Positions 7,276 through 19,737 of a stretch of DNA of 27,828 nucleotides are shown piece after piece. Under the pieces are notes generated by a model, which was not told the origin of the DNA, did no database searches, and worked only from the letters and a program-made list of their open reading frames with translations. The DNA comes from Patescibacteria group bacterium (GTDB lineage Bacteria > Patescibacteriota > Dojkabacteria > SC72 > T1SED10-24): assembly GCA_007136035.1 (NCBI GenBank), contig SLHS01000035.1, forward strand, positions 1 through 27,828, written 5' to 3'. Every line of letters starts with the position of its first letter. Positions within the stretch are counted from its first letter, which is position 1. The position numbers and the translations under genes were made by a program.

Positions 7276-10200
7276 CTAATTATCCCCCTTTTTTTCTAAA
7301 ACAATATTCTTTCTAACAAGTAGAGGTTTTTTAACACTACCTTTGAAAATCAAGTCTCGTTCTTTAAGATTTGTAATTTCATAACCAGGAGTCAAAAGTT
7401 CTAGCTGGTATTCACCACCAGGAACCAAAAATTTATAACGTCCCCTTTTGTCAGTTACTCTTTTAGCTATCAATTTTTCAAATTTCAATTCTCTTAATCC
7501 AAGAGATACACCTTCAATTAATTCACCTTTCCTATTCTTAACTAAGCCAAAACTATGTCTTTTAGACGTAGGGGAAGCCAAGAAAAGATGCAGACCTATT
7601 AAAGGAAGATAAATTATCAAAATTATGAGATTAAATGTGCTTGGATCTCTAACATACAAAAAGAGCGCTAGAAGGAAACCTAAACTTATGAAGATTTTCT
7701 GCAAAAACAAGAACATTTTACCCAGCTTATTTAATACATAAGTTTTGTAATATGCTAAATGGGAAGAATCTAGAGGATCAAGGGGTATAGAGTACTGTAT
7801 ATTGGAATCCTCCTTAATCACAAACCTACCCCCCCTATAGATATTTTCCAAAGGAGGATCTACTTTTCCTGTTATTAATTTTGAAGGATATGAATAATTA
7901 GGGCTGGAAACTTTTAAAAAATATTCCCCTCCCTCAAGACTCGCGGTAAAGATGCCATAAACATTTGTAACTGTTGTCGTTATTAATTTCTTCCCCTTGT
8001 ATATTCTAATGATAGCTCTGTTTATTGGTTCTTTAGATATAGCATCATATACATAACCATAGGGTAGAATCTTTTTCTTTTTTCTAAAAATAGCAAATAG
8101 GCCTAGAAGAAGTTGCCACAATGGATAGAGTGTTGCCGGACTTAATGCAATCGTAAGAAGAGTAGCTGGAGCCAAAGTAGAAACAAGAGCTATAGAACCA
8201 GTTCTAAATCTAAGCTCATCAAGTTCTAAATCTTGTATATATGAAATGGCTTCCTCCATATTTCTTCTGAAAGGCGGCAAGGGTTCTACTGGGACAGGTT
8301 CTTCTTCAACAATTTCTATTTCTTTAAGCAGATAAAAACGCTCCTCCTTACATAATGAACCTATATTACCTACAATATCTTCGGCTTCAACACAATATTC
8401 AAGCAAGTATTCATTATTACCTACTTCATAATTAAATAAATCACTTTCTTCAAAAACTATATAGTGGAAATCATTCATAGAGGAAATAGAGCCACAAGAT
8501 GCATATACTCCTTCATTTGGTATTTTACATTCAAATTTTACATTTGAAACACCAGATAAATCTTTTATCAGAAAAGTAAACCTTACAAAATTCCTTTGAT
8601 TTCGAGTAAAAGTTTCAAAATCGACCTTCTCTATATCTGGAGGTTCATCATCCTGTATACTAAAAACCACATTTGAAAAGGAGCTTTCTACACCTGCAGA
8701 GTTCCTTAACATTCCTCTATAAAAATAACCTTGAGCATGATCTAAATTTTTGAAGGTGAAAACATTAAAAGAAATCCAACCACTACTAGCTGGTGATATG
8801 AAATCAGCATTTCTTGAAATTTGGATATTATATTGATAATTACCCACTAAATTGTTCCAAGTTATTCTTCTCGTTAAACCTTTAGAATAATTTGGCAGAC
8901 TGTGTAGTTGTAATGTGGGTAATTGAGTTACTTGAAGCCAATCAAATGCGTCAATCGTAAAGTTGAGAGGTATTGTCCTATCCTGAGCCGTTACCCTAAC
9001 TGTTGCCACTTCAAAACCTCTTATCCTACCTTCAGCAACACCATTGCTGTTTGTTAAACCAACAGGTTGTTCAATATCCCACAGGGCTAAGTTAGGACGA
9101 TCTATTTGAAAGAAAATTCTCCTCCCAGGTAGAGGGTTTCCATTGGAATCAACAAGAGTTATTCTAACTCTTGACCACATACCTTTTTCAACAATTGGAT
9201 CTAAAACTTCAATCATTCCTTTAGGTTTCTCTGCCTGTATACTCGAGACTATATTTGAATATCCACTTTCTATCTCAGCAATATTTCTTGCCTTCCCCCG
9301 ATAATAGTATACTTGTCCATTCTGAAGATTGTGAAAAGTAAATCCACTCGAAGTTATCCAACCAGAAGTTTTCTCAATTGTATTAAAAGAAGCATCTAGA
9401 GAAGCTTCTATGAAATATTCATAGTTACCGCTGTGCGGACTCCAAGTTATCTCGCGAGATAAGCCAGAAGTATACATCGGTAATTGATTCAAAGTAATTG
9501 TTGGTACTTCGATTACAGTTAAATTATCAAAGTCTTTAATCTCAACATCTTGGGAAAAAGTTTTATCAATAGCACTTACATTGATTGTACCAGTAACAAA
9601 ACCACGAACTCTCGTCTGGAAGATACCATTGCTATTTGTTGTACCTGAAGGGTTCTCTATTTCCCAATTATTTAAATTTGCAACATCTAAATCTATCTCT
9701 ACTTGTCTACCTGGTATTGGATTACCCTGAGAATCTAAAACCGTAACCCTAACCCTAGACCAAATTCCTTTTTCAACGACAGGATCTAAAACCTCAACCC
9801 GTGAAAAAAAATCTTCATCTACAAATGCGGTAACAGTGACACCATCTGCAGATTGGAGATAAACAGCATAAGCAGCAGACTCCGTTATTAGACCTCTTTT
9901 TAAATCTACAATTATATTATTACTACCACTAAAAAGACCTGTAGACAAATTTGAACTTGGATCTATTCTTACTCCATAAGAAGTTCCCCCAACCAAAGAA
10001 TCTATACCTGTAATTTCAATTGTATCATTGGAATAATTCCCTCCTCCTTGATAACATACTGCTTGTAAATTACCAGGCAATGGAGCATCTATCTGCCAAC
10101 CCTCAATATTAATATTTGTCGCCACAGTACCTGAAACGGACAATGAAGCAGCATCTTCTTTACACCACTGGCCATAGCTGTTTACAGGGAAAGACACTGT

Positions 10201-10386
10201 CAACCCACTACCAGAACTAAAATCCTCACTGGGAGTAATTAGTAAAAGCATTTCAACATTCGTTGTATTAGTATAAAAAAAAAAAAAAAACAAATAACTT
10301 GGACTTAAACTATGAACAAAGGTTGCACTAAAAACGAAAAGCAGTAAAGAAAAAAGGATTAGTTTAAAAAAGACTTTTTTGTACAT
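7276..10386 (-). CDS. Large cell-surface protein: signal peptide, 2x (invasin/Big_1-type Ig + FN3-like) repeats, C-terminal TMs with carboxypeptidase-regulatory-like domains
   Basis: Signal peptide; duplicated VRVTVLDSQGNPIPGRQV / VRITLVDSNGNPLPGRRI (Big_1-like); FN3-like YYYRGKARN / YFYRGMLRN; TM then RKKKK; GYVYDAISKEPI...TNVYGIF and TDKRGRYKF (carboxypeptidase-regulatory-like). Confidence 0.85.
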   Translation of the reverse strand: MYKKVFFKLILFSLLLFVFSATFVHSLSPSYLFFFFFYTNTTNVEMLLLITPSEDFSSGSGLTVSFPVNSYGQWCKEDAASLSVSGTVATNINIEGWQIDAPLPGNLQAVCYQGGGNYSNDTIEITGIDSLVGGTSYGVRIDPSSNLSTGLFSGSNNIIVDLKRGLITESAAYAVYLQSADGVTVTAFVDEDFFSRVEVLDPVVEKGIWSRVRVTVLDSQGNPIPGRQVEIDLDVANLNNWEIENPSGTTNSNGIFQTRVRGFVTGTINVSAIDKTFSQDVEIKDFDNLTVIEVPTITLNQLPMYTSGLSREITWSPHSGNYEYFIEASLDASFNTIEKTSGWITSSGFTFHNLQNGQVYYYRGKARNIAEIESGYSNIVSSIQAEKPKGMIEVLDPIVEKGMWSRVRITLVDSNGNPLPGRRIFFQIDRPNLALWDIEQPVGLTNSNGVAEGRIRGFEVATVRVTAQDRTIPLNFTIDAFDWLQVTQLPTLQLHSLPNYSKGLTRRITWNNLVGNYQYNIQISRNADFISPASSGWISFNVFTFKNLDHAQGYFYRGMLRNSAGVESSFSNVVFSIQDDEPPDIEKVDFETFTRNQRNFVRFTFLIKDLSGVSNVKFECKIPNEGVYASCGSISSMNDFHYIVFEESDLFNYEVGNNEYLLEYCVEAEDIVGNIGSLCKEERFYLLKEIEIVEEEPVPVEPLPPFRRNMEEAISYIQDLELDELRFRTGSIALVSTLAPATLLTIALSPATLYPLWQLLLGLFAIFRKKKKILPYGYVYDAISKEPINRAIIRIYKGKKLITTTVTNVYGIFTASLEGGEYFLKVSSPNYSYPSKLITGKVDPPLENIYRGGRFVIKEDSNIQYSIPLDPLDSSHLAYYKTYVLNKLGKMFLFLQKIFISLGFLLALFLYVRDPSTFNLIILIIYLPLIGLHLFLASPTSKRHSFGLVKNRKGELIEGVSLGLRELKFEKLIAKRVTDKRGRYKFLVPGGEYQLELLTPGYEITNLKERDLIFKGSVKKPLLVRKNIVLEKKGDN
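8643..9798 (-). repeat. Intragenic tandem duplication, two units of about 195 aa (585-nt period)
   Basis: Unit 1 begins VEVLDPVVEKGIWSRVR (9798), unit 2 begins IEVLDPIVEKGMWSRVR (9213). The units end VSSIQ and VFSIQ. Confidence 0.85.
10275..10290. repeat. A16/T16 homopolymer inside the surface-protein gene
   Basis: 16 consecutive A on the plus strand, encoding FFFFF-Y in the ORF translation. Confidence 0.85.
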
Positions 10387-10987
10387 ACAAATCTATAAAT
10401 TTCGTTAAATTTTTTGATAGATAATTCATTTCACAAGATTTAATTAGTGCAGAATTATCCCTAAGGTTACTATCAAGATAACACTTTTCACAAAAAATCT
10501 CAAAATTCTCTAAATTAACATATTCTACACAATCAGCATTCCCACACTTTGAACAACTACTGTATGGTAAAAGTCCCATATTTTTCAAAAAACCCAAACG
10601 AAACTTATTAACATCCTCATCTTTAAAACCATTTTTGAGAACATAATAAAGTTTTTCATAAAAATCACAAGATTCATCGCCTTCTTCCACACACCTATTT
10701 AGAAGTGAAAGAATTCTTTCAATACCTTTCAAATTTGAAGAAGAGTAGTCTGGAGAAAAAACACTCTTCGTTTCCAGTAGTACACCCATACCTTTATTAC
10801 GATAAAAACTGATTTGCGAAACTGAAAGAGTTTGAATGTTTCCCCTATTTTTACTCTCTATTTTTCTAATTCCCTTTGCAATTAAAGGGAATTTACCATA
10901 ACTTTTTCCAACGACAGTAAGAATCTTATCAGCTTCTCTGTAATTTATTGACTTTATGACAATTACTTCATCCTTGAAAACGGGCAT
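10364..10987 (-). CDS. recO: DNA repair protein RecO
   Basis: IVIKSINYREADKILTV...IAKGIRKIESKNRG N-terminal OB-fold signature; C-terminal CSKC...CEKC Zn finger. Likely start MPVFKD (10987), next to the upstream stop; the ORF track starts at 11005. Confidence 0.9.
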   Translation of the reverse strand: MPVFKDEVIVIKSINYREADKILTVVGKSYGKFPLIAKGIRKIESKNRGNIQTLSVSQISFYRNKGMGVLLETKSVFSPDYSSSNLKGIERILSLLNRCVEEGDESCDFYEKLYYVLKNGFKDEDVNKFRLGFLKNMGLLPYSSCSKCGNADCVEYVNLENFEIFCEKCYLDSNLRDNSALIKSCEMNYLSKNLTKFIDLYVQKSLF

Positions 10988-10988
10988 G

Positions 10989-11660
10989 TTATTCGTAAGC
11001 TCCATATCTTGTAATTACAACAATAGGAGTTTTTAACAAAATTAATATATAAAAAATTATACTCTTTTTTTTAAAATATTCATAATCACAACCAATTCTT
11101 TCTGGTATTGTCAACGAGTTTCTTCCAGATATCTGCCAAAGACCCGTTATTCCAGGCTTAAGTTTAAGGACAGAATTTATTTTCTTTTTAAAAGAGGGGT
11201 ATTCCTTACGGTATAAATCTATCTCCTGCTTAAAATACGCCCTTGGCCCAACCAAACTCATCTCACCCTTTAGGACATTAAAAAGTTGAAGTAATTCATC
11301 AAGATCAAATCTTCTGATAATTTTACCAATAGGCGTAATCCTAATATCATCCCTTATTTTTAACTTCGCTCCTTCCTTATCATATTTTGCCTTTAAATTG
11401 GCAAAATCAGGATTAGTATGCAAAAGTTCATGAGCTCTGGGAACCATAGTTCTAAATTTGTACATAAAAAAAAGATCACCATTTTTACCCACACGCCAAT
11501 GATTATCTGCATATATTGGAGATTTAAAATCTGTTAATTTAATAGCTAAAGCAATAACTATTAAAAGGGGGAGGAAAAGAAAAAGTAAGATTAAAGATAA
11601 AACGATATCTAAAAACCTAAAAACAATTTCCAAAAGGTTAATCTTTTTTAAGAATTTCAT
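10989..11660 (-). CDS. Priming sugar transferase (Bac_transf; monotopic phosphoglycosyl transferase of PglC/WbaP/CpsE C-terminal type)
   Basis: FRFLDIVLS + TM, RVGKNG..F.MYKFRTM, DIRITPIGKIIRRFDLDELLQLFNVLKGEMSLVGPR, KPGITGLWQISGRN. Confidence 0.93.
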   Translation of the reverse strand: MKFLKKINLLEIVFRFLDIVLSLILLFLFLPLLIVIALAIKLTDFKSPIYADNHWRVGKNGDLFFMYKFRTMVPRAHELLHTNPDFANLKAKYDKEGAKLKIRDDIRITPIGKIIRRFDLDELLQLFNVLKGEMSLVGPRAYFKQEIDLYRKEYPSFKKKINSVLKLKPGITGLWQISGRNSLTIPERIGCDYEYFKKKSIIFYILILLKTPIVVITRYGAYE

Positions 11661-12792
11661 CCGTTAATTCAACCATCTTATTTTCAAAAACATCAAAACT
11701 AAACCTTTCTGCTTGCTCCTTGCATTTCTCCGGTTCAAAAGAATAACTATTCCATTTTTCTAACTCCCTTTGTAATGAATTCACTGTATGTTCTTTAAAA
11801 AATTTCCCCGTAACACCATCAACTATTGTTTCTAAAACACCACCACCAGCAAATGCAAGAACGGGGCAACCAGCCGCATTTGCTTCGATTGGCACAATAC
11901 CAAAATCCTCATCTTTTACTGGAAAAATCAGAGCTTTACATTTAAAAAGCAAGTTAGACTTTTCCTTATTATCAACATAACCAAGAAATTCAATTAAGTG
12001 TTCTCCACCTAATTCTTTAACTCTTTTTTTCAAATCTTCAACAAAAGACCCTTTACCTGCTATCTTTAATTTTTTCCCTGCATTTATACAAGCCTCAACC
12101 ATTAAATCAACCCCTTTATATCTTTCAACTCTACCCACATAAAAAAACCAATCTTCCCTACTTTTATATTGTGGATTAAATTTTATATAATCCATTTCAA
12201 CAGGGGGATAAAGGACCTTTGCATCCAATTCATAAAATTTCTTAACTCTTTTCGCAACCTCTTTCGAATTTGCCGCCACCATATCAGCTTGTCTAGCAGC
12301 ATTTTTGTCTTTCTTCCTCCAACATCCATGTAATACTGGTTTAAAAAGAGAATACATTTTATATGAAAATTTATGAGTATGACGATCAGACCTTGTATCT
12401 AACCAAAGATATCTTGGAGGAGTTAAACAGTAAAGAAAATGTTTTGTTTTTTTTGGTGTTTTAACAAATTTCGCAAAAGCAGAAGATACAGAAATTACCA
12501 AATCATAACCTTTTAAGTTTAACATTCTAAAAGCTAATGGGTACAAAAGAAAGTATTCCTCCCGAAATCTTTTCTCAAACGGCATTTTTTGAACAAAAGA
12601 AGCTCTAACATCTTTACCCTGAAAATGCTTTTCTAAAACATCCTTTTCATATATAGATGTATATATTGTCGAATTGGGAAAAAGTTTTGTAAAAGCAAGA
12701 ATATCATCTTGAGCACCTCCCCAAAATTGCAATTCGTCTGAAATTATTGCAACTTTCAAATCTTTAAATTTTTTCTTTTTTAAATTCTTCAT
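11638..12792 (-). CDS. GT4 glycosyltransferase, WbaZ-like
   Basis: VAIISD..WGGAQ, YDLVISVSSAFAK, YCLTPPRYLW, EDFGIVPIEANAAGCPV. Likely start ATG 12792; the ORF track starts at TTG 12816. Confidence 0.9.
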   Translation of the reverse strand: MKNLKKKKFKDLKVAIISDELQFWGGAQDDILAFTKLFPNSTIYTSIYEKDVLEKHFQGKDVRASFVQKMPFEKRFREEYFLLYPLAFRMLNLKGYDLVISVSSAFAKFVKTPKKTKHFLYCLTPPRYLWLDTRSDRHTHKFSYKMYSLFKPVLHGCWRKKDKNAARQADMVAANSKEVAKRVKKFYELDAKVLYPPVEMDYIKFNPQYKSREDWFFYVGRVERYKGVDLMVEACINAGKKLKIAGKGSFVEDLKKRVKELGGEHLIEFLGYVDNKEKSNLLFKCKALIFPVKDEDFGIVPIEANAAGCPVLAFAGGGVLETIVDGVTGKFFKEHTVNSLQRELEKWNSYSFEPEKCKEQAERFSFDVFENKMVELTDEILKKD

Positions 12793-13909
12793 ATTTTTTA
12801 CTTGCGAAATCTGCAAATTCTTTTAAAAACTTTTCTTCTGAGAAATACTGTGCTCGAGATTTTAAATCTTTTTCTTTAAAAGATCCTTTCTTAAAATTAG
12901 AAATTAGTTTTGAAAGTTCATCAACAGAAGAAAAAAAATGGCCTGTTTTTTTCTCCTCAACTGTTTCAGTTAAACCACCATAGTTATATGCGAGAACCGG
13001 ACATCCACAAGCCATGGCTTCCAATGGTACAAGCCCAAAATCTTCAATTCCAGGAAAAATAAATGCTGTAGCATTAGAATAAACGGCTTTTAGTTGCTCA
13101 TCTGATATATATCCTAAAAAGAGAATATTTTTTGACTTACCTGCTAATTTCTTAAGATATTTTACATCTGGGCCATCACCAACTATAACTAATTTTTTGT
13201 TTTCCTTCTTACATGCTTTAATTGCCCAATCAATCCTTTTGTAATCATAAAGTCTAGAAACTACAAGATAGTATTCTTTTTTAAATGACTTTGGTATTAA
13301 ATTGCCTAAGTGACAACTACCTTCTTGAAGCCAAAAATCTAAGATACCCGGATAAATTACTACAGAATCACGATGATATCGATGTTGAATTTTTCTTTGA
13401 ATAAATTTCGATATAGCAACAATTTCATCAATTCTTTGAGCCGCTGCATAATCCCATACTCTGTAAAAATTCGAAAAGAATGGAGAAAGAACATCTATCA
13501 AAAATTTCAACTTTGATGTTCTAAAACTTCTTTCTTTATCCCAATATGTTCGAGGTGGTGTTAAAAGTAAGCATATATGTAATTGCTCCATTGTTGTAAT
13601 AACACCTTTAGCAGAACCTGCAGATACACTTATCACAAGTTCATAATCTTTTAAATCAAGCATTTCAAAAGCCCAAGGTGTCAGAATGTTATAATGATTT
13701 TTTAGTATTTTTCTATAAAAAGGTTTTTGTAAAAATGTCGTATGAACATTATTATCAATATCTTTATATTCATCTTCATTAAATACTGCTGTATATATAT
13801 CTGCTTTGGGAAAAATCTTCAAAAGGGAATCAATATTCCTATCAGAGCCACCCTTTGCCAACATGGAATCTACTACTAAAGCTACTTTAAGTGAAGAAAT
13901 CTCTTTCAT
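12764..13909 (-). CDS. GT4 glycosyltransferase, WbaZ-like
   Basis: VALVVDSM..KGGSDR, YELVISVSAGSAKGV, TPPRTYWD, EDFGLVPLEAMACGCPV. Confidence 0.9.
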   Translation of the reverse strand: MKEISSLKVALVVDSMLAKGGSDRNIDSLLKIFPKADIYTAVFNEDEYKDIDNNVHTTFLQKPFYRKILKNHYNILTPWAFEMLDLKDYELVISVSAGSAKGVITTMEQLHICLLLTPPRTYWDKERSFRTSKLKFLIDVLSPFFSNFYRVWDYAAAQRIDEIVAISKFIQRKIQHRYHRDSVVIYPGILDFWLQEGSCHLGNLIPKSFKKEYYLVVSRLYDYKRIDWAIKACKKENKKLVIVGDGPDVKYLKKLAGKSKNILFLGYISDEQLKAVYSNATAFIFPGIEDFGLVPLEAMACGCPVLAYNYGGLTETVEEKKTGHFFSSVDELSKLISNFKKGSFKEKDLKSRAQYFSEEKFLKEFADFASKKYEEFKKEKI

Positions 13910-13916
13910 ACAAGAG

Positions 13917-13945
13917 ATTTTACCAAGAGTTAATTAAGAGTACAA
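13917..13945 (-). promoter_or_regulatory. Promoter TTGTAC-N17-(TGg)TAAAAT, probably leaderless
   Basis: -35 at 13945-13940, extended -10 at 13922-13917, ATG only 7 nt downstream. Confidence 0.65.
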
Positions 13946-13947
13946 CG

Positions 13948-14586
13948 CTATTTTATTTTCCCCATCATTAAACTTGTTTGTTTTCTACAGCGCTTGTTCA
14001 AAATCAATGGCATACAAATTAACCCAACACCAAGCATAATACCAAAAGCATTAAAAATTGACGTTCGGGGGAGAGGTACTGTTTCTTCTTGTCCCGATTC
14101 TGATTCGGGCTCAGATACTGATTCTTGTATTTGTAAAGTTGTAGTATAGTTCCCAGAACCATCGGTAATTTCTGCAACACCCGCAGTTTCGACAGAAACA
14201 ATTTCTACCACAGCTTGCCCTTCACCTGTAGATTCAAAATTTAGAGTAGCAAAAACCCCATCATTACCACTATATGGCTCGGTTAATATGAAGCAGTAAA
14301 GAAATATATCCTGGAATTCTGCAGTATCTCTTTCTAAACCATCTACCTCACAACCACTGATATTACCAGAATCAAAACTTGTAAAAGCTATATCACCACC
14401 ATATTCAACCGACATTTCAATACCGTTTATTTCACTACCACCGCTATTTACAACAATATTAATCGCTTTACCTGTTCCGTCTATCGTTCCACTAATGGGA
14501 TCCAGAAAGATTGAACCAGAAGCATGTACAACACCAGAGGAAACGGAAACAAAAAGAATTACCAAGAGAATTACTATTTTTTTCAT
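13948..14586 (-). CDS. Secreted cohesin-like domain protein with C-terminal LPRTS-IF / TM / basic tail
   Basis: Signal peptide ending VHA; beta-rich domain IFLDP..INIVVNSGGSEINGIEMSVEY...GVFATLNF (cohesin-like); acidic linker; LPRTSIF, hydrophobic helix, NKRCRK. Confidence 0.8.
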   Translation of the reverse strand: MKKIVILLVILFVSVSSGVVHASGSIFLDPISGTIDGTGKAINIVVNSGGSEINGIEMSVEYGGDIAFTSFDSGNISGCEVDGLERDTAEFQDIFLYCFILTEPYSGNDGVFATLNFESTGEGQAVVEIVSVETAGVAEITDGSGNYTTTLQIQESVSEPESESGQEETVPLPRTSIFNAFGIMLGVGLICMPLILNKRCRKQTSLMMGKIK

Positions 14587-14591
14587 TATTT

Positions 14592-16097
14592 TTAAAAAGA
14601 TAACTTATTTCTCATAGAAAAAGTTTCCTGACCATTCCTACTCTTGTATACTAGCAAAATACTTGAAATTAATACAAGTACAAACCCTATTAAAATTCCT
14701 GTGTTTTCAAAAATCGATGTTTCAGGCAATCCATCATCTTTAAGAGGCGTTGAATACCTAGAAGCAGAGCAGGAAATTGATTCTGAAGATGTAGCACATT
14801 GCCAAGTTACCCTTGAACCCGGCTCCGGGAATTCCGGGTTTAACGGGCTTACATCCCCTCCTAGACAAAATGAACCTGTAGGCCAAGTCATGGTTTCATA
14901 TGCAAAAATTTGACCATTTAAAGTACCACATGATAGTGAAACAGGGGGAGCAGAAGGGGCAGCATCTCTCTGAGCAGAACAAGAAACAGCCTCTGTCCCT
15001 GCAACACAGGACCATGATGTCTTCGAACCCTCACCAGGAAAACTTGGATTTGTAGGTTCTGAAACACCCTCTGAACAAAAAGTCCCTTGTGGCCAGGTTG
15101 TCGTTTGATATGCAAAGGTTTGATTATTTAATGTACCACATGAAGGCTGAGTATCCGAAACATCTAATGTTGTCGTATACTGACCATCACCACCAGTAAA
15201 GTTAACTTCTTGCCTATCATCTCTTACTGCATAATCAACCCTCGTAACATCAATTTCGCCCTGACCATAACCACCAATAGCTCTAAAAATAACGGAGGCA
15301 AAGACATCATCCTTCCCTTTATAAGTTGGTTGTGTAGCACTTATAAAACAATGTAAACCCCTAGAAGAACCTGAACCTGTCTCTTCAACCTCACAATTTT
15401 CTATTTCACCCTGTTCAAAACCAACATATTCTATATCACCAGAATATTCAAAAGTTACATCTATACCACTAACATCTTCACCTTGTGTATCAACAAGTAA
15501 ATCTATTTTTTTACCCTCACCTGGAATTATCCCACTCGAAGAATCCAAGACAACAGCTACCCCTGAAGACACTTGATAATCACCTCTACTTCCTAAAACC
15601 TCGACCTCCCTTCTACTATCTCTTACAGCAAAATAGACTTCAACAACTTCTATTTTAGCCGATTCACTGCCTGTTGAACGAAAACTAGCTGTTGCAAAAA
15701 CATCTCCACTTCCTTGATATGCTGAAGACTCTGGAGGGATAAAACAAAATAAATTCACCCTATTATCACCTTGAACAACATCCTCAACCTTACAATTTGG
15801 TATATCCCCATCAATAAAACTATCATAATGGATAGATTCTGTATATTCCAATGTTACTTCTACACCACTTATTTCTTCCCCATGGGTATCTATTATCAAA
15901 TCTATATCTAAACCCTCGTCCGATATAATTCCCCTACTAGGGTTTAATTCTATACCAACCTCTGAAAGTGCCCGACTTCTTTCATCAAAAGTTTCTGAAG
16001 TAAAAACAAAATATGCGGTTAGTGCAAGAACCAACACTAAAAGGCCTAAACCACCGAATAAAAGGAATTTTTTATGTTCATACTTTCTTCTCAACAT
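14592..16097 (-). CDS. Surface protein: N-terminal TM, two cohesin-like domains, two Cys-rich repeats, LPETS-IF / TM / basic tail
   Basis: Two homologous beta domains (IDLIIDTHGEEISGVEVTLEY / IDLLVDTQGEDVSGIDVTFEY), two SCGTLN repeats, LPETSIF, TM, YKSR. Start ATG 16097 preferred over TTG 16112. Confidence 0.82.
   Translation of the reverse strand: MLRRKYEHKKFLLFGGLGLLVLVLALTAYFVFTSETFDERSRALSEVGIELNPSRGIISDEGLDIDLIIDTHGEEISGVEVTLEYTESIHYDSFIDGDIPNCKVEDVVQGDNRVNLFCFIPPESSAYQGSGDVFATASFRSTGSESAKIEVVEVYFAVRDSRREVEVLGSRGDYQVSSGVAVVLDSSSGIIPGEGKKIDLLVDTQGEDVSGIDVTFEYSGDIEYVGFEQGEIENCEVEETGSGSSRGLHCFISATQPTYKGKDDVFASVIFRAIGGYGQGEIDVTRVDYAVRDDRQEVNFTGGDGQYTTTLDVSDTQPSCGTLNNQTFAYQTTTWPQGTFCSEGVSEPTNPSFPGEGSKTSWSCVAGTEAVSCSAQRDAAPSAPPVSLSCGTLNGQIFAYETMTWPTGSFCLGGDVSPLNPEFPEPGSRVTWQCATSSESISCSASRYSTPLKDDGLPETSIFENTGILIGFVLVLISSILLVYKSRNGQETFSMRNKLSF
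14757..15140 (-). repeat. Two 4-Cys repeats (70-aa / 210-nt period)
   Basis: CGTLNNQTFAYQTTTWPQGTFC...SWSC...SCSAQR versus CGTLNGQIFAYETMTWPTGSFC...TWQC...SCSASR. Confidence 0.85.
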
Positions 16098-16124
16098 ACC
16101 CAATAATATCAATAATTCAAATAT

Positions 16125-16598
16125 CTACAACTCTGGCAAATTTTCGACATCATCTTCTAAATCCTCATCTTCCTGATCCAATACATCCAACGCTGCTTCA
16201 AAATCATCACCCAAATCTCCAACATAAGTTCTTCTTCCATCTTCATCCTCTTCCTCTGGAAAAATTTCAGCTAATTCAACATCATCACTAGCCTGACCAG
16301 ATTCTTCTTCAACACCAAACTCTTCCGTTTCCTCCCCAGAAACAGAATCATCAAATTGCATAGTACCTACTTTCTTTTCTGGAAGTTTCCTCTTTTCTGC
16401 TTCATTTAAATTATCTAAATATTCATTTGCTTCATCCCCATACAATTCCGCTACTTGTATAACCCTCATTGGAGCATTACAATCTTTGCACATTTTCACC
16501 TCATCTACCTCTTCACCACAATTAGAACAAGAATAGTGCACAACGTGGATACTAACTAAGGGCTTCATAACTTGTTTCTTTGTCCTCTTTGATTCCAA
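16125..16598 (-). CDS. Zn-ribbon protein with very acidic C-terminal tail
   Basis: CSNC-x9-CKDC near the N-terminus; 32 of the last 70 residues are D/E. Start is TTG 16598 or ATG 16568. Confidence 0.78.
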   Translation of the reverse strand: MESKRTKKQVMKPLVSIHVVHYSCSNCGEEVDEVKMCKDCNAPMRVIQVAELYGDEANEYLDNLNEAEKRKLPEKKVGTMQFDDSVSGEETEEFGVEEESGQASDDVELAEIFPEEEDEDGRRTYVGDLGDDFEAALDVLDQEDEDLEDDVENLPEL

Positions 16599-16628
16599 AA
16601 ACAGGAAGCATAATTAAAATATACTTAC

Positions 16629-16657
16629 AGAATAATACACTTTAATTATATAGTCAA
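16629..16657 (-). promoter_or_regulatory. Promoter TTGACT-N17-TATTCT
   Basis: -35 at 16657-16652 and -10 at 16634-16629, in the secA/Zn-ribbon intergenic region. Confidence 0.6.
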
Positions 16658-16681
16658 TAAACCCTATAAAAAAGGAAAGCA

Positions 16682-19624
16682 CTAGCCGTACTTGGGGTAA
16701 CAACACTTCTTGTATTTTTTACCACTATCACATGGACACGGTTCATTACGTCCTACTTTTACAGCTTTTTTAACAGGTTCCGTTCTTTTTTCCTTGTCTG
16801 GTTTCAATGTTCCATATGATTGTATCTCTTTCTTCAATGTATCCATATTAGAAACTGGTAGTTCTTCTTTTCTTACCACTCGAACTTTAAAGAATCTCGT
16901 AACAATAGCATTATCAATATTATTTAACATCTCTTCAAACAAACGAAATCCTTCATTCTTGTACTCTACCAAAGGATCTTTTTGAGCAATATTTCTAAGC
17001 GAAATACCTTCCCTTAAATCAGTCATTGTATCTAAATGCTGCATCCAAAATTGATCAATTGTCTGTAATACAAGATGTCTCGAAAACTCGCTAGTCGCTT
17101 TTGAGCCAATGTAATGGAGATGATGGATAAATCCTACTACGGCAAGTAAAACATAGCTGTTTAATTGTCTAATACTATCTTGTTCTTTAGTTGCTTCTCT
17201 AAAAAATTCCGTTGAGTCTTTGTAACCTAGAGATTTACAAGCAATTTCTGTCAATTCTTCGGTCAACATAGATTTTAACTGAGCAACAGTTTTTCTTTCC
17301 TCCACATTATCAATTTGCATATCATCAGAAAGTTGAGCAGAAATTACAAAACGGATATTTTCAATAATTTTTTTTAAAATCCATAAACTAAGAGGATTAT
17401 TTACCAAAGGATATTTTTCAAAGGAATCTATTTTCCAAGTAGATTCATCTCTTAATGAGAACCTATCTAGTTCACTCATCACCTTACTTACATCAAGATT
17501 TTTAAGATATTTTTTGTTAAATTTAACAACTCTACCAGTATCCAAAGATTCAATAATGTAAAGAATTTTTCTTCTAAGCCCATAAATTATTTCTCTTTGC
17601 TGATTAAGTACGTCATCATATTCCACTAATCTTTTTCGAATATCATAATTACGTCCCTCTACCTTCTTTTGGGCTGATTCTATTGATTTACCCAAAACTC
17701 CAACAGAAATAGGCATACTATCATCCATACCTACTTTACCCATAATATTTCCGACATTATCTCCACCAAAAAGTCTCATCAACTCGTCTTCAAAAGAAAC
17801 ATAGAATCTAGACTTGCCTGGATCTCCTTGTCTACCTGAACGACCTCTCAACTGATTATCAATACGTCTTGATTCATGTCTTTCAGAACCTATTATGAAA
17901 AGACCACCTAGCTCTTTAACACCCTCACCTAAAGCAATATCTGTACCTCGACCTGCCATATTAGTGGCAATAGTCACTTGTTCCTTTTGACCAGCCTTAG
18001 AAACAATACTCGCCTCACTTTCATGATGCTTTGCATTCAAAACACTATGCTCCACACCTTCTTTTGAAAGCATATCAGAAAGTACTTCAGATTTTTCAAC
18101 AGAAGTTGTACCAACAAGGATTGGTTGTCCTTTAGCATTATGCTCTTTAATATCCTCAACTATCGCTTTGAATTTACCCATTTGGGTTCTAAAAACAGAA
18201 TCTGGTTGATCATCTCGAATAATTGGTTTGTTAGGAGGTATAACTACAGTATCTAGTTTGTAAATTTTAGAAAATTCCTCCGCTTCCGTTAAAGCAGTTC
18301 CTGTCATACCAGCAAGATAGTCATAGAGACGAAAATAATTCTGTAGAGTTATAGTTGCAAGAGTAATAGATTCTTTTTTAACTTCAACTCCTTCTTTAGC
18401 CTCAATAGCTTGATGAAGTCCCTCACTATATCTTCTACCCTGAAGAACTCTACCAGTAAATTCATCAACTATCAGGACTTCACCATTTCGAACCATATAT
18501 TCATCATCTTTTTTGTAAAGCTCTTTAGCTTTAAGAGCATTTTCCAAATGATATGCAAATATTGCATCCTCATATACATTCTCCTTGTTTAAAAGTTTTT
18601 CAACACGATCAATTCCTTCATCATTTAAAGAAACAGCATGAGATTTTTCATCAACAACATAATCTCTCTCATTTTCTAACTGACGCACTAATCTTGCAAA
18701 TTGCTTATACATTTCATTTGAGTCTTCAGCACCTTGAGAAATTATAAGGGGGGTTCTAGCTTCATCGATTAAGATTGAGTCAGCCTCATCAACTATTGCA
18801 TAATGTAAAGGACCTTGTACCCTCTCCCTAAAACTTCTAGCCATATTATCTCGCAGATAGTCAAAACCAAACTCATTGTTAGTACCATAAACAATATCAC
18901 AAGCATAGGCTTCGTGCTTTGTACACTCAATTAAATTCACCCCACTCATTTGATCATATTTCATAAGACCTCTTTCTTCCATTTTCTTTTTTCTTTCGGC
19001 TATCAAATCCTTACCTTCCTTACCCTTTAGCTTTGCAGCTTCGTCATCAGGAATAAATTTAAATTGTACTCCTGAATTAATAACGCCAACACTAATTCCA
19101 AGAGCATTTAAAATATGACCATTCCATTCTGCATCTCTTCTAGCAAGATAATCATTTACTGTGACAACATGAGCACCTTTTCCAGTTAAAGCATACATAT
19201 ACAAAGGCAAGTTAGCTGCAAGAGTTTTTCCTTCACCTGTAAAAAGCTCAACTATTTTGTTTTCAAAAAGAAAATACCCTGCCATTAATTGAACATCAAA
19301 GTGTCTATGACCTGCAACTCTCTTTGATGCTTCACGAACAACCGCAAATGCTTCTGGAAGAATTTCTCGTAACTGAGTTTTTCTTTTTTCCAATTGAACA
19401 GAGTTCTTTTCCTTAGTAGCATCAACAAGAATATTTTGCTGTGTTCTGGCTTCTTCTAAAATAACACCCAAAGTTTTTCTAAACTTTGAAGTTTTTTCCA
19501 TCAACTTTTCATCAGAGAGTTTTGATATTTTCTCTTCTAAATCATTAATTTCTTTAATTAATGGCTCTATCTTTTTCAGTTGTTTTTCATTTGAGTCAAA
19601 AAGACCTGAGAGGAAATTAAACAT
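16682..19624 (-). CDS. secA: Preprotein translocase ATPase SecA with C-terminal SEC-C motif
   Basis: TGEGKT, VTVNDYLARRD, YGTNNEFGFDYLRDN, IVDEADSILIDEARTPLIIS, ATNMAGRGTD, RRIDNQLRGRSGRQGDPG, GRNEPCPCDSGKKYKKCC. Likely start MFNFL (19624); the ORF track starts at 19651. Confidence 0.98.
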   Translation of the reverse strand: MFNFLSGLFDSNEKQLKKIEPLIKEINDLEEKISKLSDEKLMEKTSKFRKTLGVILEEARTQQNILVDATKEKNSVQLEKRKTQLREILPEAFAVVREASKRVAGHRHFDVQLMAGYFLFENKIVELFTGEGKTLAANLPLYMYALTGKGAHVVTVNDYLARRDAEWNGHILNALGISVGVINSGVQFKFIPDDEAAKLKGKEGKDLIAERKKKMEERGLMKYDQMSGVNLIECTKHEAYACDIVYGTNNEFGFDYLRDNMARSFRERVQGPLHYAIVDEADSILIDEARTPLIISQGAEDSNEMYKQFARLVRQLENERDYVVDEKSHAVSLNDEGIDRVEKLLNKENVYEDAIFAYHLENALKAKELYKKDDEYMVRNGEVLIVDEFTGRVLQGRRYSEGLHQAIEAKEGVEVKKESITLATITLQNYFRLYDYLAGMTGTALTEAEEFSKIYKLDTVVIPPNKPIIRDDQPDSVFRTQMGKFKAIVEDIKEHNAKGQPILVGTTSVEKSEVLSDMLSKEGVEHSVLNAKHHESEASIVSKAGQKEQVTIATNMAGRGTDIALGEGVKELGGLFIIGSERHESRRIDNQLRGRSGRQGDPGKSRFYVSFEDELMRLFGGDNVGNIMGKVGMDDSMPISVGVLGKSIESAQKKVEGRNYDIRKRLVEYDDVLNQQREIIYGLRRKILYIIESLDTGRVVKFNKKYLKNLDVSKVMSELDRFSLRDESTWKIDSFEKYPLVNNPLSLWILKKIIENIRFVISAQLSDDMQIDNVEERKTVAQLKSMLTEELTEIACKSLGYKDSTEFFREATKEQDSIRQLNSYVLLAVVGFIHHLHYIGSKATSEFSRHLVLQTIDQFWMQHLDTMTDLREGISLRNIAQKDPLVEYKNEGFRLFEEMLNNIDNAIVTRFFKVRVVRKEELPVSNMDTLKKEIQSYGTLKPDKEKRTEPVKKAVKVGRNEPCPCDSGKKYKKCCYPKYG

Positions 19625-19631
19625 AAATTTG

Positions 19632-19637
19632 ATTATA
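19632..19637 (-). promoter_or_regulatory. -10 box TATAAT 7 nt before the secA ATG
   Basis: TATAAT-caaattt-ATG on the minus strand; the -35 is weak (TGTAAA). Confidence 0.55.
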
Positions 19638-19737
19638 CAAGTTATATCCAAAAATTTACAGAGTTTTCAGAAGATTTAAAATTTCTTTTCAGATTCCACA
19701 GCTATTCTTAAAGCAACTAACTTCATAGGGACAAATT

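Follow-up and report, generated by a model that had tools for sequence, protein, structure and literature searches.

The stretch of DNA analyzed here, hereafter the window, is an entire contig of 27,828 nucleotides (SLHS01000035.1) from the genome of a Patescibacteria group bacterium belonging to Dojkabacteria (GenBank assembly GCA_007136035.1). This genome comprises 591 kb in 99 contigs, is 76% complete and has a G+C content of ∼32%; relatives of the proteins encoded in the window were found in metagenome-assembled genomes labelled Candidatus Dojkabacteria, Patescibacteria group and Saccharibacteria. Two neighboring open reading frames (ORFs) on the minus strand, here named ORF A and ORF B, encode proteins that end in LPRTSIF and LPETSIF, respectively, each followed by a hydrophobic helix and a tail rich in Lys and Arg. 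This study is concerned with these two proteins and with the sorting signal that they appear to carry. Both C-termini had been noticed in an earlier reading made from the DNA letters only (the sequence-only reading), and the positions given there were exact when the codons were read on the minus strand. The coordinates of all features are collected in Table 1.

The two proteins have the appearance of exported proteins with a C-terminal sorting signal. At the N-terminus, as judged by eye, ORF A starts with MKK and a hydrophobic run that leads to VHA before SG, whereas ORF B has a basic start and then a 20-residue hydrophobic segment; both were considered Sec-type signal peptides. Two start codons are possible for ORF B: its longest frame runs from TTG 16112, whereas database gene calls and all orthologs start at ATG 16097, five codons downstream (MLRRKY..., 501 residues). 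At the other end, the L-P-x-T core occupies residues 172-175 of 212 in ORF A and 462-465 of 506 in ORF B, that is, 30-45 residues from the C-terminus. After the motif, each protein has a hydrophobic segment (∼19-21 residues, including 2-3 Gly) and then a 15-17-residue tail with 4-6 Lys/Arg (Kyte-Doolittle maxima of 2.4 and 2.9-3.1, with 6 and 4 Lys/Arg after the helix). On the basis of amino acid composition, LP.TSIF would be expected 0.0085 times per proteome; it was observed twice, both times at this C-terminal position. Thus, the possibility that the motif is limited to these two genes, which would have reduced it to a simple duplication, holds inside this genome; it fails across relatives, as described below.

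Table 1 Features of ORF A and ORF B (positions in the window)
Feature	Positions	Strand	Description or basis
ORF A, 212 residues	13948..14586	-	Signal peptide, one cohesin-fold domain, acidic linker, LPRTS sorting signal
ORF A, Sec-type signal peptide, residues 1-22	14521..14586	-	VHA before SG at its end; read by eye; modelled helix 2-17
ORF A, cohesin-fold domain, ∼residues 23-150	14137..14520	-	Profile search, AlphaFold, Foldseek
ORF A, acidic linker	14074..14136	-	Length and sequence vary among orthologs
ORF A, LPRTSIF, residues 172-178	14053..14073	-	CTC CCC CGA ACG TCA ATT TTT; Ser (TCA) at P1'
ORF A, C-terminal membrane helix (approximate bounds)	13996..14052	-	Hydropathy and model
ORF A, basic cytoplasmic tail	13951..13995	-	Conserved LMxGKI at its end; ortholog alignment
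ORF B, 506 residues from TTG 16112	14592..16112	-	N-terminal hydrophobic segment, two cohesin-like domains, two Cys-rich repeats, LPETS signal
ORF B, cohesin-like domain 1, residues 47-162	15627..15974	-	Alignment to ORF A and to the ORF A ortholog profile
ORF B, cohesin-like domain 2, residues 180-326	15135..15575	-	Same alignments; Pfam Cohesin E 0.013, under cut-off
ORF B, two tandem repeats of ∼60 residues, four Cys each (CGTLN...W.C...SCSA type)	14748..15134	-	Translation; between second cohesin-like domain and sorting signal
ORF B, LPETSIF, residues 462-468	14709..14729	-	TTG CCT GAA ACA TCG ATT TTT; Ser (TCG) at P1'
ORF B, C-terminal membrane helix (approximate bounds)	14646..14708	-	Hydropathy
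ORF B, cytoplasmic tail	14595..14645	-	Conserved FSMRNKLS motif at its end; ortholog alignment

The extracellular parts of the two proteins are related to each other. ORF A shares 37-38% identity with both cohesin-like domains of ORF B (E 8e-23 and 2e-17), a profile built from ORF A orthologs matches both domains, and the two tails can also be aligned (E 6e-4). On these alignments, the proteins, which the sequence-only reading had described as otherwise different, are evidently tandem paralogs. The tail common to both within this genome is thus explained by descent, and its significance comes instead from its conservation across orthologs and its presence on unrelated proteins in sister genomes. 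The Cys-rich repeats of ORF B matched no Pfam family.

Structure prediction supported a nine-stranded jelly-roll cohesin fold for ORF A. The AlphaFold model, calculated from a 9-sequence alignment, had a core predicted local distance difference test (pLDDT) score of 85-97 over residues 22-150. When this model was searched with Foldseek against the Protein Data Bank (PDB), the top 32 matches were all cohesin modules (probability 1.00, target template modelling (TM) score 0.55-0.75). The best of them was the non-cellulosomal cohesin of Archaeoglobus (2xdh; E 8e-8, target TM 0.75), and further matches included Ruminococcus, Acetivibrio and Clostridium cohesins, with ScaE (2zf9) lower in the list. 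The ORF A profile also matched the cohesin chains 5nrm/5nrk (E 5e-5). With the Pfam Cohesin model (PF00963), ORF B scored 16.1 bits against a cut-off of 24.1 and ORF A had no match. In addition, three dockerin-bearing ORFs were identified in the genome and are candidate partners of the cohesin modules: a 101-residue protein consisting of just a signal peptide and a type I dockerin (C26:174-479; Pfam E 1.4e-13), a 449-residue Cys-rich secreted protein with a C-terminal dockerin (C61:17-1366) and a 125-residue ORF that has a dockerin at its end and an uncertain 5' end (C84:470-847). The complex predicted between the ORF A cohesin and the first of these dockerins scored 0.03, under the mark, which speaks neither for nor against binding. 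Judging from these genes, a small cohesin-dockerin display system appears plausible. A sortase-assembled pilus was also considered and set aside, as the fold is that of a cohesin and not of CnaB/CnaA pilins and no sortase is clustered with the genes.

Further investigation of relatives revealed that the motif is maintained by selection and grades into the classical one. L, P, T and S were kept without exception in the 8 orthologs of ORF A, which have identities of 45-80%, and x was R, Q or D; the 16 orthologs of ORF B had LP[ED][TA]SI[FLS]. When the 49-residue signal by itself was used as query, a word-index search gave just the query protein and one ortholog and was uninformative. A profile of the 47-residue tail matched all 5 genomes of the taxonomic family. 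In two more distant genera of this family, the signal reads LPKTSIF, LPQTSLA, LPQTNLL, LPETNVF, LPHASIF, LPETSMF or LPETNII, and it is also found there on proteins of 174 and 107 residues without a cohesin domain. The occurrence on non-cohesin proteins, together with the conservation among orthologs, indicates that the signal is modular and under selection. With weaker matches, the same tail profile detected LPDTGI, LPETGIFDN, LPDTAIFDN, IPETGIDMN, IPETAIDMN, VPDTAID and IPETGLFDN in other families of the order (120 genomes). They represent one and the same extended signal, in which Gly or Ala stands in place of the Ser or Asn of this family. Signals of the form [LIV]P[DE]T[GA]I.. are also present on another set of small proteins from outside this family but within the order, and their tails close with a different conserved motif (RRGTVV or RGTIVL); tail endings seem to be family-specific.

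We also examined P1', the residue directly after the predicted cleavage site, and P1, the one before it, on a broader scale. A search of 1.84 billion cluster representatives with the ORF A profile recovered 181 relatives, from which 83 representatives (at most 50% identical) beyond the close orthologs had a recognizable signal. Gly was the most frequent P1' residue (42 representatives), followed by Ala (21), Ser (19) and Asn (1); at P1, Thr was found in 56, Ala in 16 and Ser in 11; the three positions after P1' were mostly I/L, F/L and D/S/E. On a tree of 89 signal-bearing single-cohesin proteins (at most 300 residues), calculated with the signal columns left out, the P1' state changed at least 24 times, compared with 36-41 times when labels were shuffled, and G, A and S were mixed within well-supported small clades. 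The supported clade that includes ORF A has 19 members, all with Ser except for one with Asn. The Ser codons used here, TCA and TCG, are one step away from the Ala codons GCN. The simplest reading of these sequences is that the sortases of these bacteria would tolerate any small P1' residue and that the clade of ORF A has settled on Ser.

The enzymes needed for such a signal are encoded in the genome. The window itself has no sortase gene, as the sequence-only reading had observed; in the whole genome, five genes with a sortase domain (PF04203; C1:3537-4238, C22:5439-6224, C92:2225-2896, C76:10145-10642 and C19:12603-end) were over the Pfam cut-off, all of which keep the His, the TxxTC-type Cys and the Arg, and three of which also pass the cut-off of the generic model TIGR01076. 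Sortases were present in all 120 genomes of the order, with 1-6 copies each, which agrees with a previous report of sortases as a common feature of the candidate phyla radiation (CPR), present almost throughout Microgenomates (PMC6744442). One genome of a sister genus has a 1035-codon open frame with a sortase catalytic domain at its end (G001:C20:1289-1660), possibly a fusion of a large surface protein and a sortase. With regard to the acceptor, three Mur ligases, three penicillin-binding protein (PBP) transpeptidases and two MraY-type genes were identified, and an M23 peptidase is encoded within the window. Thus, the suggestion that a lipid or glycan would have to serve as acceptor if peptidoglycan were absent does not apply to this organism.

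Taken together, we consider it probable that ORF A and ORF B are Sec-exported cohesin surface proteins with an ordinary sortase wall-sorting signal in which Ser replaces Gly at P1'. Most likely, the signal is a mild variant of a known sortase system and is carried by ScaE-like proteins. The C-terminal 45 residues would act as the sorting signal, with the helix and the basic tail holding the exported protein in the membrane. One of the five sortases would then cut the Thr-Ser bond, form a thioacyl intermediate and transfer the protein to a peptidoglycan precursor. The cohesin modules would be displayed on the wall as in ScaE-type anchoring scaffoldins, possibly serving as docking posts for dockerin-bearing proteins.

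Several known systems share parts of this arrangement. First, the signal resembles the LPXTG signal (TIGR01167/PF00746) in the signal peptide, the L-P-x-T core ∼40 residues from the C-terminus, the helix, the basic tail and a genome that encodes sortases and a peptidoglycan pathway. It differs in that an entire clade is fixed for Ser/Asn, which otherwise is a rare exception, that the motif continues as I-F-[DNE] and the tail has 15-47 residues with a conserved end, and that the curated models remain under cut-off and the sortases fit no class A-F model. Second, Ser or Asn after Thr is an already known variant of sortase A substrates, both natural and in vitro, and the small P1' residue of ORF A and ORF B has direct counterparts in streptococci. 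SrtA of Streptococcus pyogenes accepts LPXTS and LPXTA, has been crystallized with LPATS and is reported to have an unselective P1' site (PMC9520033). Two proteins with LPXTS and two with LPXTN are known from S. agalactiae, where anchoring of the LPXTN protein ScpB depends on SrtA (PMC8225981); LPXTS proteins also occur in S. uberis (PMC2657157). Third, sortase-anchored single-cohesin proteins have been reported, namely ScaE of Ruminococcus flavefaciens and Sca2 of R. bromii (PMC4611034). ORF A has the same order of signal peptide, cohesin, linker and C-terminal sortase signal, and dockerin ORFs are present in the genome. In contrast with these proteins, no cellulosomal or amylosomal enzymes are evident here, identity to solved cohesins is 10-20%, dockerin binding is putative, and the host is a CPR bacterium of 0.6-0.8 Mb in which the genes lie between secA and a glycosyltransferase cluster. 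Finally, class D signals (LPXTA/LPNTA, Bacillus) likewise have a small residue in place of the P1' Gly, and Ala-type signals occur in the order; however, the five sortases score 27-79 bits against cut-offs of 140-165, and no link to sporulation was observed.

A number of observations weigh against the interpretation as an ordinary sortase signal. P1' was occupied by Ser, and not by Gly, in ORF A, ORF B and 24 of 25 orthologs, and the curated hidden Markov models scored under their cut-offs (PF00746, 11.5 bits against 20; TIGR01167, 12.1 against 15.9), ORF A matching neither. It is because of these two shortcomings that we regard the signal as a variant, not a member, of the LPXTG type. Thr was replaced by Ala in 5 of 16 ORF B orthologs, and P1 was Ala or Ser in 27 of the 83 family representatives, which is looser than in classical signals. 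None of the five sortases reached a class-specific (A-F) NCBIfam cut-off, and no sortase adjoins ORF A/B in four syntenic contigs (the window and three other assemblies) or is found beside a substrate in ∼20 substrate loci. In addition, the tail exceeds the classical one in length, and its end carries a conserved motif without counterpart in classical signals.

Some of these points would be expected if the helix were a permanent anchor that is never cleaved. In that case, LPxTSIF would be conserved just as an element beside the membrane, such as a helix cap or a site of contact with other proteins, and no sortase would process it. The sub-threshold scores with the LPXTG-anchor models, the change of Thr to Ala in several orthologs, the missing adjoining sortase and the long tail, whose conserved end suggests that the cytoplasmic part is kept and used, all fit such an anchor. 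However, the motif is at the canonical place and grades without a break into the LPETG/LPDTA of sister families, the signal rides on unrelated N-terminal parts, and sortases are universal in the order. So close a likeness to the sortase pentapeptide is unexpected for a purely structural element, and we consider an uncleaved anchor quite unlikely. Even the weak, sub-threshold matches to the LPXTG models are in line with the proposal of the sequence-only reading that the tail is a sortase-type sorting signal, and this part of it was upheld, given the LPxT core conserved under selection and the LPETG/LPDTA forms in sister families.

A different question is whether the Ser/Asn form has an enzyme of its own. 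To this end, 54 sortase domains were placed on a tree; they came from 15 genomes belonging to four families of bacteria. The C1-type sortase, encoded upstream of trigger factor and ClpP, and the C22-type were order-wide, the C19-type clade was nearly confined to the family of the source organism, and the clade of the 165-residue C76-type sortase contained this family only (Shimodaira-Hasegawa-like approximate likelihood ratio test (SH-aLRT) 99). An order-wide search with the C76-type sequence gave full-length matches of more than 100 bits in the 5 genomes of the family only, and at most 69 bits elsewhere. This distribution matches that of the Ser/Asn form, which within the order is likewise confined to the family. 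The genome also has a single classical LPETG signal, with a short helix and the tail KRKKKN, on a 652-residue protein without a Pfam domain that is encoded immediately upstream of the C92 sortase (C92:196-2896); this protein and the C92 sortase look like partners dedicated to each other and separate from the extended-signal class, and at least two substrate classes therefore coexist in the genome. The C76-type sortase, and not the order-wide housekeeping sortases, might read the Ser/Asn form, perhaps with an acceptor other than the usual wall. The co-distribution, however, concerns one lineage and hence a single evolutionary event; the free interchange of G, A and S elsewhere in the cohesin family argues for tolerance; and the C76-type gene is surrounded by housekeeping genes (RF-1, DnaB) with no substrate beside it. 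The C19-type gene also has housekeeping neighbors only and no substrate. A C76-type sortase dedicated to the Ser/Asn form appears very unlikely. Assignment of the cognate sortase by phylogenetic profile was tried and abandoned, as co-distribution in a single lineage is too weak to claim.

The further proposal that the tail marks a system of its own for processing and anchoring, specific to the lineage, is not supported, considering the five intact sortases, the presence of sortases in every genome of the order and the streptococcal Ser/Asn precedents. Processing by an exosortase, archaeosortase, rhombosortase or another protease agrees with the tripartite layout, which is common to all such systems, but is scarcely credible given that no exosortase (PF09721) or rhomboid (PF01694) match was found in the 76%-complete genome, that the motif is of the LPxT type and not PEP, PGF or GlyGly, and that five sortases are present.

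The end of the tail differs from that of classical sorting signals, which require just positive charge in this part. In the 83 representatives, the tail after the helix had a median of 19 residues and reached 47, with recurring endings such as SMRNKL, LMxGKI, KLEKKF and SMREKL; carriers without a cohesin end in a similar manner (FEEKVV, FENRIV). Within the last 14 residues, 37 representatives matched a loose pattern (hydrophobic, x, [EDNQRKG], [KR], hydrophobic), against a background of ∼9% of shuffled tails and 9% of the other C-termini of the genome. In scans of both proteins, no curated Pfam or NCBIfam model covered this motif. The conserved motif at the extreme C-terminus and the family-restricted small sortase may be new, and they should be considered leads, not results. 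In the furthest-reaching interpretation, which we hold to be unlikely, an undescribed, Patescibacteria-wide class of extended signals would consist of LPx[TAS][GAS]-[IL][FL][DSE], then a helix and finally a cytoplasmic tail of 15-47 residues that closes with hydrophobic-x-[EDN]-[KR]-hydrophobic, the tail motif would be a second determinant of recognition or retention, and the Ser/Asn form would be read by the 165-residue C76-type sortase of the family, making a new sortase-signal pair and not a tolerated variant.

The genomic context of ORF A and ORF B is also conserved. The order secA, a 157-residue acidic Zn-ribbon protein, ORF B, ORF A, two GT4 glycosyltransferases, a Bac_transf priming transferase, recO and a 1036-residue Big_1/CarboxypepD_reg surface protein (7276-19651 in the window) is kept in three other assemblies. 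The neighborhood around secA, the two ORFs and the GT4 genes suggests a region for the export and glycosylation of surface proteins.

It is poorly known how the ultra-small bacteria of the CPR, or Patescibacteria, build the surface with which they attach to their hosts, and the locus adds to it a conserved pair of cohesin proteins that are predicted to be anchored to the wall. The anchoring signal, as far as sequences can indicate, suggests that CPR sortases may accept Gly, Ala or Ser after the cleavage site. Because both curated models score sub-threshold, annotation that relies on LPXTG models misses such substrates, and a relaxed LPx[TAS][GAS] rule combined with the I-F-D extension would find them.

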